Of a stretch of 64,000 nt of DNA, positions 5,700 through 12,569 are shown piece after piece; position 1 is the stretch's first letter, and each line of letters starts with the position of its first letter. The notes under the pieces are model-generated. The model did no database searches and was not told the origin of the DNA. It saw nothing but the letters and a program-made list of their open reading frames with translations. The translations under genes and the position numbers were made by a program. Source of the stretch: an uncultured Pseudomonadota bacterium (GTDB lineage: Bacteria; Babelota; Babeliae; Babelales; CAIQNR01); contig CAZSHB010000001.1 of the NCBI GenBank assembly GCA_964606885.1, positions 61,569 through 125,568 of the forward strand, read 5' to 3'.

Positions 5700-7118
5700 C
5701 TACGTTAGTTTATTATTTTTTAACACCATTTCTTTTACTTTTTTCTTATCGTGTAACGACTGCTCAATTTGTAGTTCATACGCAGCTTGTACTAACTTAC
5801 CAAGCGCAGGCCCAGGCGCACACACATCCAAGAAATCTGCACCTGTTAACAACGGCTTTTCCGGTCCGTACGCAACACCATACTGTTGTGCACGTGTAAA
5901 AAATTCTTCAACTAATGGTTCTGGGCATACTGCTAATGGCCTGTGCTTTTCTGGATTACGTGCCGACTTATCCGCTTTACAAAGCATATACAAATCGTAC
6001 ATCGTACATTCTGGCGCAAGTTTTGATGCAAGTCGTTTATACGCAGCAGCACTACTGTTATTTTTTACTAATGCTATAGGTGTCATATGGTGGCGCACTA
6101 ATTTAAGCACCGCATCTTGTATATGTTGCGTGGGACATAAACGCTTAAGAAGACTACTTGCCGGTTTTACCCCTGCAACATCATGCCCTAACGAACGAAT
6201 GCGCCCATCAACAAATTGTGTAGTTGCCGGCTTGCCAAGATCATGCGCAAGTGCTGCAAACACTAATGTTAATTTTTTCTCTACAGTCTCATACGTATAC
6301 GAAGCTGCTGCATCAACTGCCTGCATAGTATGCTCAAACACATCCCCTTCCGGGTGGTATTCGAGCCACTGACTAACATGTTGTAAGGCCGCAACTTCAG
6401 GCGCTATCTCTTTAAGACGACCAATCGTGGCAAGCCAACGGATACCAAGCGATGGTTGTTCCGATTTTAAGAATAACTTTTCAAACTCTTTACTAATACG
6501 TTCTTGTGCCACACCTGCTAGATCCATATTTGTACACAAGGCTGATAGTTCTGCATCAGGATGCATGTTAAACCGACCTATAAACTGCATTACTCTATAA
6601 AAGCGCAACGGATCTTGTACAAAAAAATGAGCATCCGGCGTCCGCAACAGATTCTTCTGTAAATCGTGCACGCCATTAAAGGGGTCAATCAGTTCTCCAG
6701 TTGCAAGATCAATACCCATAGCATTTATGGTAAGATCGCGCCGCCTAAACGCATCGGCCATGTTCATATGCGGGTCTAACGTGACGGTTGGTTTTCTACC
6801 GGCAGTATCGGCACGAGGTAGCGACCAATCGGCAGGTATACCATCAATCTTTAAAACGCCGTACACCTTACCCACCAAACGCACATGCCCAAACTTTTTG
6901 AGTACCTTTTCTAGCGCTGCTAGTCCAAGACCATGCACTTCAATATCTATGTCTTCAAGAGGTTTTTGCAACAATGCATCGCGCACTGCACCTCCTACTA
7001 AAAGAACACGTGCATTCTGAACGTGTAAAGCATCAACTATAGGTGCAATGGCGGGATGTTTACTAAAAATAGTTTCACGTGTTTTTTGTACTAACTGAGC
7101 AACTTTTGTAGACTGCAT
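5700..7118 (-). CDS. cca: CCA-adding tRNA nucleotidyltransferase with HD domain
   Basis: PolyA-polymerase/CCA head domain (LLVGGAVRDALL...DIDIEV; RRDLTINA) followed by an HD domain (ALAHDLGK). Confidence 0.85.
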   Translation of the reverse strand: MQSTKVAQLVQKTRETIFSKHPAIAPIVDALHVQNARVLLVGGAVRDALLQKPLEDIDIEVHGLGLAALEKVLKKFGHVRLVGKVYGVLKIDGIPADWSLPRADTAGRKPTVTLDPHMNMADAFRRRDLTINAMGIDLATGELIDPFNGVHDLQKNLLRTPDAHFFVQDPLRFYRVMQFIGRFNMHPDAELSALCTNMDLAGVAQERISKEFEKLFLKSEQPSLGIRWLATIGRLKEIAPEVAALQHVSQWLEYHPEGDVFEHTMQAVDAAASYTYETVEKKLTLVFAALAHDLGKPATTQFVDGRIRSLGHDVAGVKPASSLLKRLCPTQHIQDAVLKLVRHHMTPIALVKNNSSAAAYKRLASKLAPECTMYDLYMLCKADKSARNPEKHRPLAVCPEPLVEEFFTRAQQYGVAYGPEKPLLTGADFLDVCAPGPALGKLVQAAYELQIEQSLHDKKKVKEMVLKNNKLT

Positions 7119-7233
7119 AGAATCATCACTTTTACATTAAAGATACTGTATGAATACCAAACAATTTTTATCTATCGATTTTTTATCAACTCTTTTTAAC
7201 TCTACGTTGCCAGCACTTTTTTTAAAAGATATT
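6955..7233. repeat. Segmental duplication copy A (cca 5' end + divergent promoter + 5' end of LRR gene)
   Basis: Aligns by eye over about 280 bp, roughly four-fifths identical, with 9081-9356. Shared blocks include gcaacaatgcatc, acacgtgcatt, gtgtaaagcatcaactata, gtactaactgagcaacttttgta and atactgtatgaataccaaaca. Confidence 0.85.
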
Positions 7234-8076
7234 CCATTCTTGAGCTATACAACATTAAAATGTGTGCCTCTTATACTTCTCTTTGTGTCTCATTCTTATC
7301 TGTATAGCTCAGATAAAAAACATATAAGCAAACAAGCAAGAAAATCTTTACGTACACTTCAGTTAAGTAAACTTCAAGCAATTCAATCGCAACAAAAAAA
7401 AGGTGAATCAACTCTTGAATGCATCCAGAAAGAACCAGAACATCCAGTCCATCATAAAAATGATACAGCCCAACTCACAGATAAACTGGCTACTGATGAC
7501 ATATTTACACGCAAGAATAAACGGGATTTTTTTGTAGTTCAGAACAAAGATGGAAGCTTTTCTACTATTAGCGCATTAACAGTGCTTATTCTATCGCATA
7601 ACAAATTAACATCATTCCCCAAAGAAAGTTTTTCTCATCTTTCATATTTAAAAGAGCTTGATTTATCAGACAACCAGCTCACTACACTGCCTGATATGTG
7701 TAAAGCAGATTTACCCAATCTAAAAACCCTACATTTATCCAGAAATAATTTAACATCTGAAACAGTAAATCAATTTCCTGTACTTCCACGTTTAAAAAAC
7801 CTTTACTTAGACAATAATCAAATAACAGAATTTCCTAATGTATCAGCTGAACCACTAATGCACATTCGTTATATTGATTTAAGTGATAATCAAATTACCA
7901 AGATAGATTACACTAAGATACTAGCGTATAAAAGACCTCTAGAAACTACGATATTAAATATGGAAAACAATCCTGTACAGGACACGAATAATCCTACTCG
8001 TTTAGGTATTATTTTTAAAGATGAAGATCGTTATCGATATAGAGGTAAAATACCCAATGAATGCACTTTACTTTAA
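7150..8076 (+). CDS. Leucine-rich-repeat protein with C-terminal CaaX box (CTLL)
   Basis: LRR units LxxLxLxxNxL (LKELDLSDNQLTTLPD, LKTLHLSRNNLTS, LKNLYLDNNQITEFPN, IRYIDLSDNQITKI). The last four residues are C-T-L-L then stop (TGC at 8062-8064). Confidence 0.8.
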   Translation: MNTKQFLSIDFLSTLFNSTLPALFLKDIPFLSYTTLKCVPLILLFVSHSYLYSSDKKHISKQARKSLRTLQLSKLQAIQSQQKKGESTLECIQKEPEHPVHHKNDTAQLTDKLATDDIFTRKNKRDFFVVQNKDGSFSTISALTVLILSHNKLTSFPKESFSHLSYLKELDLSDNQLTTLPDMCKADLPNLKTLHLSRNNLTSETVNQFPVLPRLKNLYLDNNQITEFPNVSAEPLMHIRYIDLSDNQITKIDYTKILAYKRPLETTILNMENNPVQDTNNPTRLGIIFKDEDRYRYRGKIPNECTLL

Positions 8077-8083
8077 GGACAGT

Positions 8084-9022
8084 ATGTATAATACATTTAT
8101 TTTTATTTTCATTATAGCGACAATGCAATCTTTTTTTTCACATGCATCAGATACAACTGCAGATCGTTATCATACCATCAAGTTTGCTGATGGTTCACAA
8201 AAAGAATATTCCAACGAATCCATTACCGATCTACCTATAATGCAAGCAGCACAAGACGCTTCTGACACTACAAATCACACACTAAATTTGTCCCATTTAC
8301 GCAATCTTAACAAACACTATTTCACTACTCTCTTGTTAGTATTAGAAGCTAAAAAACGAAGCCCTAATCATGCACAGGGTTACTATCTGCATAATGATGG
8401 TCGACGCGTTAGTGATCAAGAAAGCATTGATGCCCTCTATGCTGCGCAATCCATATATAAAAAAGATGATCCTATTCATCAAGAAATAGGAGGTAAATTT
8501 CACATGTTTTTACGACAAATTCACATATCTAATGCCTTTCTACGCGCCCTTCCACCCACTCTTCCTTTTAAAGATGAAGCAAATAATACAATATACACGC
8601 TTAATCTAGAAGGTAATCTGCTCACAACGCTTCCTGATAATGTTTTTAACCATCTAAAAAACTTGAGCACCCTCAATCTATCACGTAATTCTTTAACATC
8701 CGTAACTGCTGCAACTCTGTCTGGTCTTACTGCTTTAAAAGAACTTAATCTCTCATACAACAACCTCTCTCAAGTGCCTGAAGTTGCTCTAACATCATTA
8801 GAAAAGCTTGATGTACGCGGAAATAAAATAAAAAAAGTACGTTATGCTACATTAGCTCTTAAACAATTAGGGCCACAATTAAAACTCTTAGATTTACGAT
8901 CTAATCCCTTAAGTCCCGCTACTCACCTAGCTATGGATGCTATCCCAAAAGATACGTTAGACGTTTATCTAGAAGATGCTGATGTACCACCTAAAAAAGA
9001 TGGCGACTGTGCATTACTTTAA
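8084..9022 (+). CDS. Leucine-rich-repeat protein with C-terminal CaaX box (CALL)
   Basis: ATG at 8084 has an AAGGA SD 4 nt upstream and gives the signal peptide MYNTFIFIFIIATMQSFFSHA. LRRs: LNLEGNLLTTLPDNVFNHLKNLSTLNLSRNSLTS...LKELNLSYNNLSQVP. Ends C-A-L-L then stop (TGT at 9008-9010). The ORF-track start 8021 overlaps the upstream gene. Confidence 0.8.
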   Translation: MYNTFIFIFIIATMQSFFSHASDTTADRYHTIKFADGSQKEYSNESITDLPIMQAAQDASDTTNHTLNLSHLRNLNKHYFTTLLLVLEAKKRSPNHAQGYYLHNDGRRVSDQESIDALYAAQSIYKKDDPIHQEIGGKFHMFLRQIHISNAFLRALPPTLPFKDEANNTIYTLNLEGNLLTTLPDNVFNHLKNLSTLNLSRNSLTSVTAATLSGLTALKELNLSYNNLSQVPEVALTSLEKLDVRGNKIKKVRYATLALKQLGPQLKLLDLRSNPLSPATHLAMDAIPKDTLDVYLEDADVPPKKDGDCALL

Positions 9023-9064
9023 CAACAGATTATGTTAAGAACATTATGCATCGTATCACTTAGC

Positions 9065-9243
9065 TCACTATCCCTGCTTTCAAGATGCTTTTGCAACAAT
9101 GCATCTTGCACTACACCTCGTACAAAGAAAACACGTGCATTTTGAATGTGTAAAGCATCAACTATAGACTTAATAGCAGGATGTTTGCTAAAAATAATTT
9201 CTTGAGTTCTTTGTACTAACTGAGCAACTTTTGTACACTGCAT
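9065..9243 (-). pseudogene. Truncated duplicate of the cca 5' end (relic)
   Basis: The ORF-track peptide MQCTKVAQLVQRTQEIIFSKHPAIKSIVDALHIQNARVFFVRGVVQDALLQKHLE matches cca residues 1-55 (MQSTKVAQLVQKTRETIFSKHPAIAPIVDALHVQNARVLLVGGAVRDALLQKPLE). The GG motif is degraded and the rest of the gene is missing. Confidence 0.8.
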
Positions 9244-9356
9244 AAGATCATCACTTTTTAAAAAGGATACTGTATGAATACCAAACAGTTTTTAGCCATC
9301 GGTTTTTTACTAACTGCAGTTAACTGTACGTTGTCAGCACATATTTTTGAAGATAT
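9081..9356. repeat. Segmental duplication copy B
   Basis: Direct repeat of 6955-7233. It covers the cca relic, the intergenic promoter region and the first ~27 codons of the 9274 gene. Confidence 0.85.
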
Positions 9357-10080
9357 TTCGCTCTGGTGGAAAACAAAAGAAGAAGAAGTGGTAACACATG
9401 AACACAAATTATCCCCTGGCGCGCATATTTCTATAGAAAACAATAACGGTCCTATTACTATCAGCACTTGGAATAAAAACTCGATCATGTTAGAGGCTAC
9501 TAAATCAGGATCTGAACAATCGGTTAAAAATACCAAGATTGATCTCACCTACACCGCAAAAGGCTTATCTATAAAAACCGTTGGTCTTAAACCGGACAAA
9601 ACCTGTACTATTTCATTTGCAATTATCGTTCCTGTTGATGCTCACCTTGATTCCATTAAAACCGAACAAGGTAACATCACCGTAAAAAACAGTGCAACGC
9701 CACTCTCACTAAGCAGTAACTATGGCGATCTAACCGTGATTGACGCACAAAGCTCAATCAACGCACATACTAAATATGGACAAATCACCATATCAACGAC
9801 ATCTGAACTTAAAGATGATAATAAAGTACTTGCGTTTACCGAACGTGGCGCCATCACCATGCATGTACCAGAAAAAACAAATGCACACCTGTACGCAACT
9901 ACCTTACGTGGCAGTGTATCAACCGAACAACCTGTAACGCTTGATCCGCGCACAACTCCTATTAACACTAAAGCTATTGCGCAAATCAAACGGGACGTCC
10001 AAGGTTCTTTAGGTTCTGGACAAGGACCAACGTTTAAATTACACACCAACAAAGGCAATATTAAACTTGCTGTTAGCTAA
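9274..10080 (+). CDS. Secreted hypothetical protein, possibly DUF4097-like beta-helical (putative adhesin fold)
   Basis: Signal peptide MNTKQFLAIGFLLTAVNCTLSA. Repeated G-x-I-T-[VI] strands (GPITIST, GNITVKN, GDLTVID, GQITIST, GAITMHV, GNIKLAV). Confidence 0.45.
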   Translation: MNTKQFLAIGFLLTAVNCTLSAHIFEDISLWWKTKEEEVVTHEHKLSPGAHISIENNNGPITISTWNKNSIMLEATKSGSEQSVKNTKIDLTYTAKGLSIKTVGLKPDKTCTISFAIIVPVDAHLDSIKTEQGNITVKNSATPLSLSSNYGDLTVIDAQSSINAHTKYGQITISTTSELKDDNKVLAFTERGAITMHVPEKTNAHLYATTLRGSVSTEQPVTLDPRTTPINTKAIAQIKRDVQGSLGSGQGPTFKLHTNKGNIKLAVS

Positions 10081-10089
10081 TTAAGCAAA

Positions 10090-10620
10090 ATGCCCATGAT
10101 TACACTGTTTGCTAATGCACTTATTATTATAAGCTGCTTAATGCCTATAAGTCTTTCTAGTGCAATGCAACCTTCAATAAAAACCGGCTATCAATCTATC
10201 AATTATACGAGCACAACATATCCAGATGGTATGTACGATATTCATGTAATAAGCACCAGTAATAATGCATCTTGCCCTATTATTTATCTGCGTTTTGATA
10301 ACGCAGATGGAACAACACCTACCGTTGTAACAAGTAACATCACAGGTAAAGAAAATATCCTACAAGCACTTATCGATGCTTACGCCATTGACCGTAGTAG
10401 TTCAGATGCAGTATTCAACAACCTAAATTTTTTTGCATATCATGTTGTAAACAATCTACCAATGACGCCCAATCGCTATACAATTAGCTTGCATCTTGCT
10501 CTGACTATTATAGGAATAGAATCTTATCTAGAAAAACGTCAACCAGAATACCGCAGCTTATTGTTATCTTGGATAGATAATGAAGCACAATGTAATAATC
10601 TGCCAGCGCAACTACGTTGA
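10090..10620 (+). CDS. Hypothetical secreted protein
   Basis: 176-aa ORF with a hydrophobic leader (LFANALIIISCLMPISLSSA). I recognise no motif. Confidence 0.5.
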   Translation: MPMITLFANALIIISCLMPISLSSAMQPSIKTGYQSINYTSTTYPDGMYDIHVISTSNNASCPIIYLRFDNADGTTPTVVTSNITGKENILQALIDAYAIDRSSSDAVFNNLNFFAYHVVNNLPMTPNRYTISLHLALTIIGIESYLEKRQPEYRSLLLSWIDNEAQCNNLPAQLR

Positions 10621-10637
10621 TACTAAAACCACTTTGA

Positions 10638-11309
10638 TTATCTACGAGCAGCCATATAATCAAGATACGCTTGTCGATTATTTGCCAGCCGTTCTTCTAG
10701 TTTCCATTGACGTTGTTCACGCTTCCATGCAAGTCCTTCTATAAAAGTAAGCCATACATGCGACCAACTGCCAAGATACCCAGGTCTTGGACGTAACCCA
10801 TATTCATGCAAAAAAAGCGCAATACGATTTGTTAAAGAATGATAGCTTGGATCGCCAAATTCGGGACGCGTTGCAATAGTAGTTTGTAATTTACCAACAT
10901 CACCACGCATTTGCCTAAGCACTTCTGCATATTCCCATGAATACAAACTTTCTATAAACGCACGCACATCAGCTTGATATTGAAGGGCAACTATTTCACC
11001 TACATTTTCATAATGATCATAATAAGGCTGAAAATAATTATCTGAGATATTCACGCCATTAATAGTTTGTATTGTCGTTCTACATATAGGACATCTTGGC
11101 GCTGTCTGTGATAACTCATCCATCCATTCTTGAATGCACGGTTTACAAAAACTATGACCACAGTTTGCTTGTGCATTAAGTAATTTTTCATCAAGACAAA
11201 TGGGACATGTATCAGCGGCTGAAGCGTCATAAAAAATGTCTTCTGCGTCTGCTGCATAGATAGAACTACTCACTACTGTAGCAACTAACACTATTAGTTT
11301 TATGTTCAT
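10638..11309 (-). CDS. Secreted RING-HC (C3HC4) finger protein, putative E3 ubiquitin ligase mimic
   Basis: Signal peptide MNIKLIVLVATVVSSSIYA. Perfect RING spacing in CPIC-x11-CGH-x2-C-x2-C-x14-CPIC (DNA ~11076-11207). One copy of a ~60-aa C-terminal module is shared with the upstream gene. Confidence 0.8.
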   Translation of the reverse strand: MNIKLIVLVATVVSSSIYAADAEDIFYDASAADTCPICLDEKLLNAQANCGHSFCKPCIQEWMDELSQTAPRCPICRTTIQTINGVNISDNYFQPYYDHYENVGEIVALQYQADVRAFIESLYSWEYAEVLRQMRGDVGKLQTTIATRPEFGDPSYHSLTNRIALFLHEYGLRPRPGYLGSWSHVWLTFIEGLAWKREQRQWKLEERLANNRQAYLDYMAARR

Positions 11310-12376
11310 CGTACACCCCCTGCTTGGTAACGTGCCATTTTTCTTGCTTCCCTTGCATCTTCATCAAGATCAGGAACTTCTATAGCAAGATCTTGAGTTG
11401 ATATATTCAAATCTCGTCTAAAAATTTCCATACGAATTTCTGGAGTTAGCCATGTCTGATCAATCCATTCTGGATGCGTAAAAATATTTTCTTCTATCTT
11501 ACCTTCATAATAACTCCATAGAACCGTATAGTCACGTGGCGTCAAACTGTCGATAAAATCTCTTATTTCTTGGTAATAAGCATCTGGAATAACAAACTGA
11601 TCCATACCTTCTATAACAGGTCGGGTAAAATCAAACACATGATCTGCTGGATCAAAAAGATCTTCATCTTCAATAAATTGATCCGCAAAATATAAACGGT
11701 CAAACTCTGCAGCATTATTCATTGCACGATGATTAGTTTTATCTTGACGATCATAATCTTCTGCCTCAGTCAAATCCAAGCGCTCATCTATTTCTTGTAA
11801 ACCAACATAATTTCTAAAAAAAGCCATACGTCGCTCTAATGGTAACCACGTATCATCAACCCATTCTGGTGTTAAAGAAAGAATAATTTCTAAACTACTA
11901 TCTTCATCATCACTATATTCATCAAGTAATGCCTGATATTCCTGAACATTTAACTGATGAACAAAATCTTGAATTTGTTGACGATACATTGGTGCAACTA
12001 TAATGCGACGGTTAATATCGGGAGCAAAATTAAAATTGTGGCTGAGCGCAGGAGAGGGCTTAAATGGCACCCTAACAGGTTGCTGATTAATAGTTGTTAC
12101 ATCTGCTCTACATGCAGGGCATGTATCATGTTCATGCAACCATCCATCAATATACTCCTCCTGGCCATCTGGATAACCATCTTTAATACAAGGCATACAA
12201 AACTGATGACCACAATTTAATTGTGCATCAAGTACTATGTCTTCTTCTATACAAATCGGGCATTTTCCTGTTACTTGTTTTATAGCTTGAGGTTCTTCTG
12301 CCGGCTGTTCTGCTGCTTGTAAACCCACATTTGCTGTTAATAACAGCAAACTTGCCAACCATACTATCCGCTTCAT
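11306..12376 (-). CDS. Secreted RING-HC (C3HC4) finger protein with duplicated C-terminal module
   Basis: ATG at 12376 is preceded by AAAGGGGG; the ORF-track TTG start is 12409. Signal peptide MKRIVWLASLLLLTANVGLQA. RING: CPIC-x12-CGH-x2-C-x2-C-x23-CPAC (DNA ~12110-12262). The stop overlaps the downstream start as ATGA (11306-11309). Confidence 0.8.
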   Translation of the reverse strand: MKRIVWLASLLLLTANVGLQAAEQPAEEPQAIKQVTGKCPICIEEDIVLDAQLNCGHQFCMPCIKDGYPDGQEEYIDGWLHEHDTCPACRADVTTINQQPVRVPFKPSPALSHNFNFAPDINRRIIVAPMYRQQIQDFVHQLNVQEYQALLDEYSDDEDSSLEIILSLTPEWVDDTWLPLERRMAFFRNYVGLQEIDERLDLTEAEDYDRQDKTNHRAMNNAAEFDRLYFADQFIEDEDLFDPADHVFDFTRPVIEGMDQFVIPDAYYQEIRDFIDSLTPRDYTVLWSYYEGKIEENIFTHPEWIDQTWLTPEIRMEIFRRDLNISTQDLAIEVPDLDEDAREARKMARYQAGGVR

Positions 12377-12569
12377 TATAACCCCCTTTTTTATGCTCTC
12401 TACTTCCAATAAGCCAATGTTTTACGTATTAAGCTTATCGCAATGTTTCAATTTGAATTATATCAACTTGCCAGCCTTTTAGACAAGAAAAAAATTGATC
12501 CGGCTTACTATTGCTTTAAACTACGTACTATTATTTTAAACTTTATGCGCGATAAAAAGGACCATCCCT

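Follow-up and report, generated by a model that had tools for sequence, protein, structure and literature searches.

In a 64-kb stretch of contig CAZSHB010000001.1 (64,000 nucleotides, called the window below), two genes for leucine-rich repeat (LRR) proteins, LRR1 and LRR2, lie between cca, a gene of the tRNA nucleotidyltransferase/poly(A) polymerase family, and a divergently oriented gene starting at position 9274 (the 9274 gene). We found that the junction of these two neighbors is present in two direct copies that bracket the LRR pair, and that it is single and undivided in related genomes. An earlier reading of the same DNA (the original prediction) had proposed that the cca/9274 junction was duplicated with the LRR genes between the copies, and the repeats and the clean junctions of the relatives bear this out. 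We consider it probable that an LRR1-LRR2 operon was inserted between the divergent cca and 9274 genes by a rearrangement that duplicated their junction.

The cca/9274 junction is present in two direct copies

The copies were delimited by a repeat search, a MAFFT pairwise alignment, and a BLASTN search of positions 6900–7300 against the whole window. In the repeat search, 6940–7133 and 9065–9258 formed a direct repeat (84% identical, offset 2125 nt), as did 7139–7252 and 9263–9376 (78% identical, offset 2124 nt). The sole indel in the MAFFT alignment of the two copies, of 1 nt, falls within the intergenic spacer. BLASTN aligned 6940–7233 with 9065–9357 at 82.3% identity over 294 nt (E = 1.1e-81), the runner-up match having an E-value of 0.25. 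The predicted identity of roughly four-fifths was thus confirmed, and the similarity does not stem from low-complexity sequence. No second direct repeat of at least 60 nt exists anywhere in the window.

The duplicated core starts at 6940 in the first copy (copy A) and at 9065 in the second (copy B), with weak homology, including a 4-nt indel, extending to ~6927 and ~9052, respectively. At the other end, the likeness is clear to ~7245, fading over ~7241–7245. The repeat is ~310 bp long, and the longest run of identity between the copies in the window is 26 nt. The coordinates first proposed, 6955–7233 and 9081–9356, mark the same segments, but the true repeat is slightly longer (6940–7252 and 9065–9376).

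Each copy had been said to hold a cca 5′ end, a spacer, and a leader, and the open reading frames (ORFs) and the alignment agree. Copy A (6940–7252) comprises codons 1 to ~60 of cca, a 31-bp spacer (7119–7149), and ~31 leader codons at the start of LRR1. Copy B (9065–9376) comprises a truncated cca stub, a 30-bp spacer (9244–9273), and the native leader of the 9274 gene.

Enzymes of the CCA-adding/poly(A) polymerase family share a PolyA_pol head domain with the motifs GGxVRD and DxD, and some bacterial members carry an HD domain. The intact cca (5700–7118, minus strand, 472 aa) matches Pfam PolyA_pol (2.9e-16) and HD (8.9e-08) and is 71–77% identical in amino acid sequence to the full-length orthologs of relatives, matches that identify it as a member of this family.

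The 9274 gene (9274–10080, plus strand, 268 aa) is a conserved clade-specific gene with a signal-peptide-like leader. Its protein family has eight members at 62–100% identity, seven of them homologs at 62–73%. The leader, MNTKQFLAIGFL..N.T.SA.IFEDISLWWK, is kept in all eight. Because it is conserved across the whole family, the leader must be native to the 9274 gene, and LRR1 holds the copy. The gene had been labeled DUF4097-like. The window protein itself has no Pfam match at E ≤ 0.01 and no match to PF13349 (Toastrack DUF4097) at E ≤ 1; a “faint” precomputed hit is also recorded for it. Two of the eight family members do match PF13349 (best E = 4.5e-10), so the label holds only indirectly, as a relation of the family to Toastrack/DUF4097 proteins. 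Pattern scans of GTDB genomes and JGI metagenome contigs revealed no further relatives of the 9274 gene.

Related genomes retain the undivided junction

All comparative evidence rests on contigs obtained by exact protein look-up, designated here by L numbers. The FtsH of the window is 59–72% identical to those of metagenome-assembled genomes (MAGs) assigned to Babelota, Dependentiae, Babeliales, or TM6 and at most 48% identical to those of other bacteria, which places the genome, on sequence grounds, in the Babeliales. These bacteria are obligate intracellular associates of protists, and the local content of LRR and RING-finger genes fits a protist-associated lifestyle.

Whether cca directly adjoins the 9274 homolog in related genomes had been put forward as a check of the proposed history, and it does so in six lineages. 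On contigs L002, L003, L004, L006, and L007/L008/L009, a cca of 470–472 aa lies head-to-head with a 9274 homolog, 29–31 bp apart. In L005 the two genes are likewise adjacent at the DNA level, and a frameshift divides cca. In none of these six Babeliales lineages do LRR genes lie between cca and the 9274 homolog, and the upstream synteny is alike in the relatives (TolQ/ExbB-like, ExbD, TonB-like, TolB-like, and FtsH). Since the relatives have cca adjoining the 9274 homolog without LRR genes, the LRR1-LRR2 pair is a lineage-specific insertion.

The two copies are each other's nearest relatives, with 82% identity between A and B vs. at most 78% to any outgroup, and the event therefore post-dates the split from the nearest sampled lineage, L002, whose 9274 protein is 73% identical to that of the window. 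Whether the junction records one event or two we infer from the synonymous divergence (dS, Nei-Gojobori) between the copies: it is 0.29 in the cca part and 0.27 in the leader part, and this equality is consistent with a single event. The dS of either copy to L002 is ~0.6–1.0.

The event is old nevertheless, as a second strain shares it. The 2147-bp contig L010 (SRR27639470), from a sister strain, is 98% identical in nucleotide sequence to window positions 7081–9227 and has the same architecture, in the order copy A, LRR1, LRR2, copy B. Positions 8961–10338 of the window recur identically in an independent run (L001).

Two other interpretations of these contigs were considered and set aside. 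L002 is more similar to copy B (78%) than to copy A (70%), which prompted the idea that one copy came from another lineage. We rejected a foreign copy as the main explanation, since A and B are mutually nearest and the asymmetry is due mostly to the decayed leader and an 8-nt cluster in copy A (both described below). The length of L010 (2147 bp = 2125 + 22) raised the idea of an excised circle, which was rejected because such ends are expected from a k = 31 graph with a shared 38-nt stretch. This stretch arises from a short tract: copy B of L010 (2122–2129) reads TTTCACGTGTTTTTTG, the copy-A state, where copy B of the window (9202–9209) reads TTTCTTGAGTTCTTTG, close to L002. The four sites that differ within these 8 nt give the two copies of L010 a 38-nt identical stretch, and as both copies share it, the contig breaks there. 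The copy-A state of this tract suggests gene conversion between the repeat copies.

L002 (SRR27639469), without the insertion, and L010 (SRR27639470), with it, come from consecutively numbered sequencing runs, and two related Babeliales species probably co-occur in the same study system. The cca ORFs are split in L005 (8402–9970) and L008 (8541–9969), both from NCBI MAG assemblies (GCA_964573045.1 and GCA_964555415.1). The Logan contig L007 has an intact cca and the same 9274 homolog (P0007) as L008, and the splits probably reflect indels in the assemblies and not pseudogenes.

LRR1 is fused in frame to the copied leader

LRR1 (7150–8076, plus strand, 308 aa; Pfam LRR_4 and LRR_8) is a chimeric ORF made of the copied leader (7150–7242, MNTKQFLSIDFLSTLFNSTLPALFLKDIPFL) fused in frame to a full-length LRR protein ending in CTLL. 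LRR2 (8084–9022, plus strand) begins 7 nt past the LRR1 stop codon and encodes 312 aa from an ATG that follows AAGGA, with a signal-like N-terminus and the end CALL. The two proteins are collinear paralogs (25% identity over 303 aa, E = 1e-16), residue 45 of LRR1 aligning with residue 17 of LRR2. The similarity between copies A and B ends at ~7241–7245, exactly where the collinearity of LRR1 with the LRR2 N-terminus begins. From this collinearity, LRR1's own N-terminus starts at residue ~29–32, the end of the copied segment. The 5′ end of the gene thus consists of leader codons 1–31 and 210 nt of upstream DNA copied from the cca/9274 junction, the remainder being collinear with LRR2.

According to the original prediction, LRR1 had captured the promoter, ribosome-binding site, and N-terminal leader of its neighbor. 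That the start codon and the upstream DNA were captured is supported by the alignments. Promoter capture is plausible, because LRR1 has no other upstream DNA and because a promoter-like site is conserved in the copy. The copied ribosome-binding site has weakened: the Shine-Dalgarno core is AAGGA in copy B and all outgroups and AAAGA in the spacer of copy A, through a derived G-to-A change at position 7141. About half of the window's long ORFs have no Shine-Dalgarno core, so this weakening is not decisive. No better start for LRR1 was found near the junction, where a TTG at 7240 comes without a Shine-Dalgarno sequence, and gene callers place the start of the sister-strain gene at the equivalent of the 7150 ATG (P0009, 308 aa). 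LRR1 is presumably expressed from this ATG.

The further claim, that LRR1 had been wired into the export signal of its neighbor, was not upheld. When the differences between copies A and B in the leader part were polarized with five outgroup lineages, 16 were derived on the LRR1 side (A) and 3 on the B side (binomial p = 0.004), and omega between the two leaders is 0.92. The peak hydropathy of the copied leader is 1.7, compared with 2.6 in its 9274 parent, and a G10D substitution lies in the hydrophobic core. LRR1 keeps a hydrophobic segment of its own at residues ~37–52 (peak hydropathy 2.5), comparable to the signal-like N-terminus of LRR2 (2.6). Judged by these substitutions, the copied leader appears to evolve near-neutrally.

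The cassette (7001–9000) has a GC content of 0.32–0.37, vs. 0.44–0.46 for cca, ~0.41 for the 9274 gene, and 0.39–0.46 for the flanks overall. Among 5.8 billion protein clusters, the only full-length homologs of LRR1 and LRR2 were the sister-strain orthologs, other matches being confined to the repeats.

Between the window and L010, LRR1 shows 28 nonsynonymous and 4 synonymous differences (pN/pS, the ratio of nonsynonymous to synonymous differences per site, 1.9) and LRR2 shows 26 and 5 (pN/pS 1.5). They are concentrated in the repeat domain of LRR1 and the N-terminal half of LRR2 (7150–9022 vs. 70–1942 in L010), a pattern that indicates diversifying or relaxed selection, yet the ORFs are intact in both strains.

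Both proteins have CaaX-like ends after basic residues, RGKIPNECTLL in LRR1 (8062–8076) and PPKKDGDCALL in LRR2 (9008–9022), and the terminal CTLL and CALL are conserved in L010. An LRR protein of L005 ends in GCCIS (12414–12428). Only three window ORFs of at least 100 aa have a Cys at position −4, and LRR1 and LRR2 are two of them. The last 24 nt of the two genes are 75% identical, though the proteins are otherwise 25% identical. By analogy with known effectors, the C-termini of LRR1 and LRR2 may be prenylated by the host.

Copy B retains a decaying cca relic

The cca stub of copy B (9019–9243, minus strand) is an open 74-aa ORF with an ATG, and it is annotated as a 74-aa gene on contig L001. 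Over 61 aa it shares 72% identity with the N-terminus of cca (E = 1e-20), and it has no Pfam match. The degradation of VGGAVRD to VRGVVQD, read earlier from the letters, is correct in the translations. The DxD motif is lost as well, an indel affects the distal end, and the derived changes in the GGAVRD motif region sit at the equivalents of 6982, 6988, and 6995. Two strains that otherwise share 98% identity diverge at 10 of 205 nt of the stub but show no difference in the 69 nt of copy A that L010 covers. With the altered motif residues, the distal indel, and these strain differences, the earlier description of a decaying stub is well founded, and the ORF is best read as a decaying relic of cca.

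Five of the seven derived changes in the 5′ end of the functional cca sit in one 8-nt cluster. At 7043–7050, GACTTAATA has become GGTGCAATG on the plus strand, changing K-S to A-P in the protein, while the ancestral letters persist in the stub and in each of the five outgroups, and the cluster looks like a single multi-nucleotide event. We considered whether the stub evolves more slowly than expected under neutrality and make no such claim, the counts being small and the outcome hinging on how this cluster is scored.

Candidate promoters lie within the coding sequence of the opposite gene

The cca and 9274 start codons are ~30 bp apart and each has its own ribosome-binding region, so that, by geometry, neither promoter would fit in the spacer. 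Candidate hexamer pairs were found on both strands at conserved positions. On the plus strand, the pair TTG[TA]AC-17-TA.ACT ends 33–35 nt upstream of the ATG of that strand, in copies A and B as well as in five outgroup lineages. In copy A it reads TTGTAC-17-TAGACT (7086–7114), lies inside cca codons 2–11, and would drive LRR1-LRR2. In copy B it reads TTGTAC-17-TACACT (9211–9239), lies inside the stub, and is the candidate native promoter of the 9274 gene. On the minus strand, the pair TT[CT]AAA-16/17-TA.AGT ends 74–80 nt before the cca ATG in both copies and five outgroups. The candidate cca promoter in copy A, TTTAAA-16-TAGAGT (7199–7226), lies inside the copied leader codons, and its putative orphaned counterpart in copy B, TTCAAA-17-TACAGT (9323–9351), faces the stub and the 3′ end of LRR2. 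Both candidates are wholly within the duplicated segment.

Synonymous conservation points in the same direction. Among the amino acid-invariant codons of cca, the third position is invariant in 6 of 8 within codons 1–13, vs. 6 of 40 within codons 14–100 (p = 0.0016). In the 9274 gene, the third position is invariant in 15 of 29 such codons within codons 1–60, vs. 1 of 23 within codons 61–100 (p = 0.0002). These data suggest that both promoters lie within the neighboring coding sequences.

The synonymous conservation of the 9274 gene (9274–9453; orthologs L003, L004, and L007) reaches past the 31 duplicated codons. It suggests that the first ~60 codons hold a nucleotide-level element on one strand that is larger than a simple promoter.

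Proposed history and alternatives

In the history that we favor, cca and a secreted toastrack-like 9274 gene were divergent in the ancestor, their start codons separated by only ~30 bp. A promoter-less LRR operon of two genes (~1.8 kb) would have entered this junction once the lineage had split from its nearest sampled relative, and the same event would have duplicated ~310 bp, made up of ~60 codons of cca, the spacer, and ~31 codons from the 9274 gene. Copy A would have stayed with the working cca and copy B with the working 9274 gene, while the spare halves would have become the cca 5′ relic and an extra 31-codon leader fused in frame before the N-terminus of LRR1. If the promoter of each gene lies inside the first codons of the other, only a duplication of the whole region would leave the genes on both sides expressed. 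The LRR operon would, as a side effect, be fed by a duplicated 9274-type promoter and start codon, and the orphaned cca promoter of copy B would point back into LRR2.

Several observations weigh against this account. The hexamer candidates match only 7–8 of 12 consensus positions and were defined post hoc. A promoter and terminator scan of 6800–9500 gave no promoter over threshold, fewer matches than in shuffled sequences, and none at the expected places. Synonymous conservation near start codons can equally reflect constraints on translation initiation. The strictly polarized derived changes number seven in the stub and seven in the functional cca 5′ end, too few for a comparison of rates. 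Finally, no donor locus was found in the metagenome contigs scanned for LRR2 or in the viral contigs scanned for the LRR1 body.

The LRR genes might instead have first lain a few genes downstream of the 9274 gene and reached their present place by tandem duplication and random loss, which we regard as unlikely. The segment from cca codon ~60 to the end of LRR2 would have been doubled, after which deletions would have stripped the first copy of the 9274 body and its neighbor, so that the leader was joined to LRR1, and the second copy of the LRR genes. Such a course would account for both junctions without foreign DNA. The region downstream of the 9274 gene is also highly variable among relatives, and L005 carries an LRR gene (366 aa, with the CaaX-like end CCIS) on the same strand as its 9274 homolog, two genes farther downstream. 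However, the likeness of the L005 protein is confined to the repeats (27% over 144 aa), this island lacks any LRR gene in L002, the nearest relative, and no remnant of a second LRR gene exists downstream in the window, where orf176 and the following RING-finger gene are only 17 nt apart. Three events would also be required.

It is very improbable that the cassette and its repeat are ancestral, with the relatives having lost the cassette through recombination between the repeats and gene conversion making the duplication look young. Recombination between the two repeats would remove precisely the 2125-bp unit and recreate the junction, and the copy-A state of the four sites within 8 nt (9202–9209) in copy B of L010 suggests exchange between the copies. 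Yet all six sampled relative lineages lack the cassette, which makes this course unparsimonious. The longest identical run between the copies is only 26 nt, their mutual identity (82%) exceeds that to any relative (at most 78%), and dS is ~0.28 in both halves vs. 0.6–1.0 to L002. The lack of full-length LRR1 and LRR2 homologs outside the species further argues against an old cassette.

Direct repeats flanking an insert are a general signature of transposon or integrative insertion, and direct repeats do flank the LRR genes. Insertion of a transposon with target-site duplication, or site-specific integration of an integrative element, is nonetheless barely credible and already largely refuted. 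A repeat of this size far exceeds transposon target duplications, the insert holds the two LRR ORFs only, with no transposase or integrase ORF, and its ends carry no terminal inverted repeats. Neither the insert nor its immediate surroundings contain an integrase, the closest tRNA gene (13989) is 4.6 kb off, and Rfam and tRNA scans of the repeat/LRR region gave no match. As far as can be judged from its sequence, the insert has the features of neither a transposon or insertion sequence nor an integrase island.

Within the favored history of a junction-duplicating insertion, a more far-reaching proposal is possible, though we hold it only tentatively. The duplication may have been the very condition that made the insertion viable, the two copies splitting roles that had overlapped, with the orphan promoter of copy B making an antisense RNA across LRR2. 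Copy A would then keep the cca coding sequence and the cca promoter while lending a 9274-type promoter and start to a fast-evolving and possibly host-prenylated LRR operon, and copy B would keep the 9274 promoter inside a dead cca stub. If so, the locus would be a natural case in which a duplication resolved an overlap of regulatory and coding constraints and, at the same time, drew host-targeting genes into a housekeeping control region.

Genes downstream of the 9274 gene

Directly 3′ of the 9274 gene, orf176 (10090–10620) encodes 176 aa with a signal-like N-terminus. It has no detectable similarity to the same-position ORFs of L002–L005 (16–22% identity in forced alignment), its position being conserved and its sequence fast-changing or replaced. 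Because it lacks detectable homology to these ORFs, orf176 could not be used for testing the model of tandem duplication and loss. Next to it, at 10638–11309 and 11306–12409 on the minus strand, are two tandem paralogous genes for RING-finger (C3HC4) proteins whose N-termini resemble signal peptides; L002 has three (5998–8156). These eukaryote-like proteins of E3-ligase type are encoded in a variable island flanked by the 9274 gene and dsbD.

Comparison with known systems

The locus adds an example to a kind of event that is already known and does not reveal a new kind of system. It is a well-resolved and datable case of a compact obligate-intracellular genome fitting new host-interaction genes between packed essential genes, with outgroups, a second strain, and polarized substitutions all bearing on the LRR insertion. 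It also points to bidirectional promoters hidden in coding sequence, to an orphan promoter facing new genes, and to CaaX-like LRR ends in Dependentiae.

Rearrangements that combine duplication and insertion arise when replication switches templates or when staggered breaks are repaired. The LRR1-LRR2 locus is a clean and fairly ordinary footprint of such genome rearrangement, standard in other respects. As in segmental duplication at an insertion, two direct copies of host sequence bracket DNA that is absent from relatives, and one version of each gene is intact while the other is a stub. The copies are direct, the relatives have a single one, and A and B are mutually closest with equal divergence in both halves, which would assign the locus to segmental duplications bracketing a lineage-specific insertion. 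Here, any microhomologies at the junctions have been erased by ~18% divergence.

The C-termini recall the CaaX-motif effectors of Legionella, AnkB and PelC/PelE, which are prenylated by the host (PMC2916131, PMC13081727). In both cases, eukaryote-like repeat proteins of an amoeba-dwelling intracellular bacterium end in Cys-x-x-x after basic residues. For LRR1 and LRR2, in contrast, the resemblance is one of sequence motif, and the phylum is different.

The 5′ end of LRR1 invites comparison with terminal reassortment, in which the 5′ region of a resident gene is joined at random to another coding sequence, so that new effectors arise (Stavrinides, Ma and Guttman 2006, per PMC5675462). As described there, the process concerns type III and type IV effectors in which a working translocation signal makes up the N- or C-terminal module (PMC5675462). 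LRR1 is alike in having gained the upstream region, start codon, and N-terminal codons of an unrelated resident gene, which gave it a chimeric 5′ end, and in its structure it would count as a case of terminal reassortment. It differs in that the donor is the Sec-type leader of a conserved envelope or secreted protein, and in that the copied leader decays near-neutrally while LRR1 keeps its own hydrophobic N-terminus, so that an export function through the borrowed leader is not supported. LRR1 illustrates the capture of a start codon and probably of a promoter, and it warns that a copied leader need not be a working export signal.

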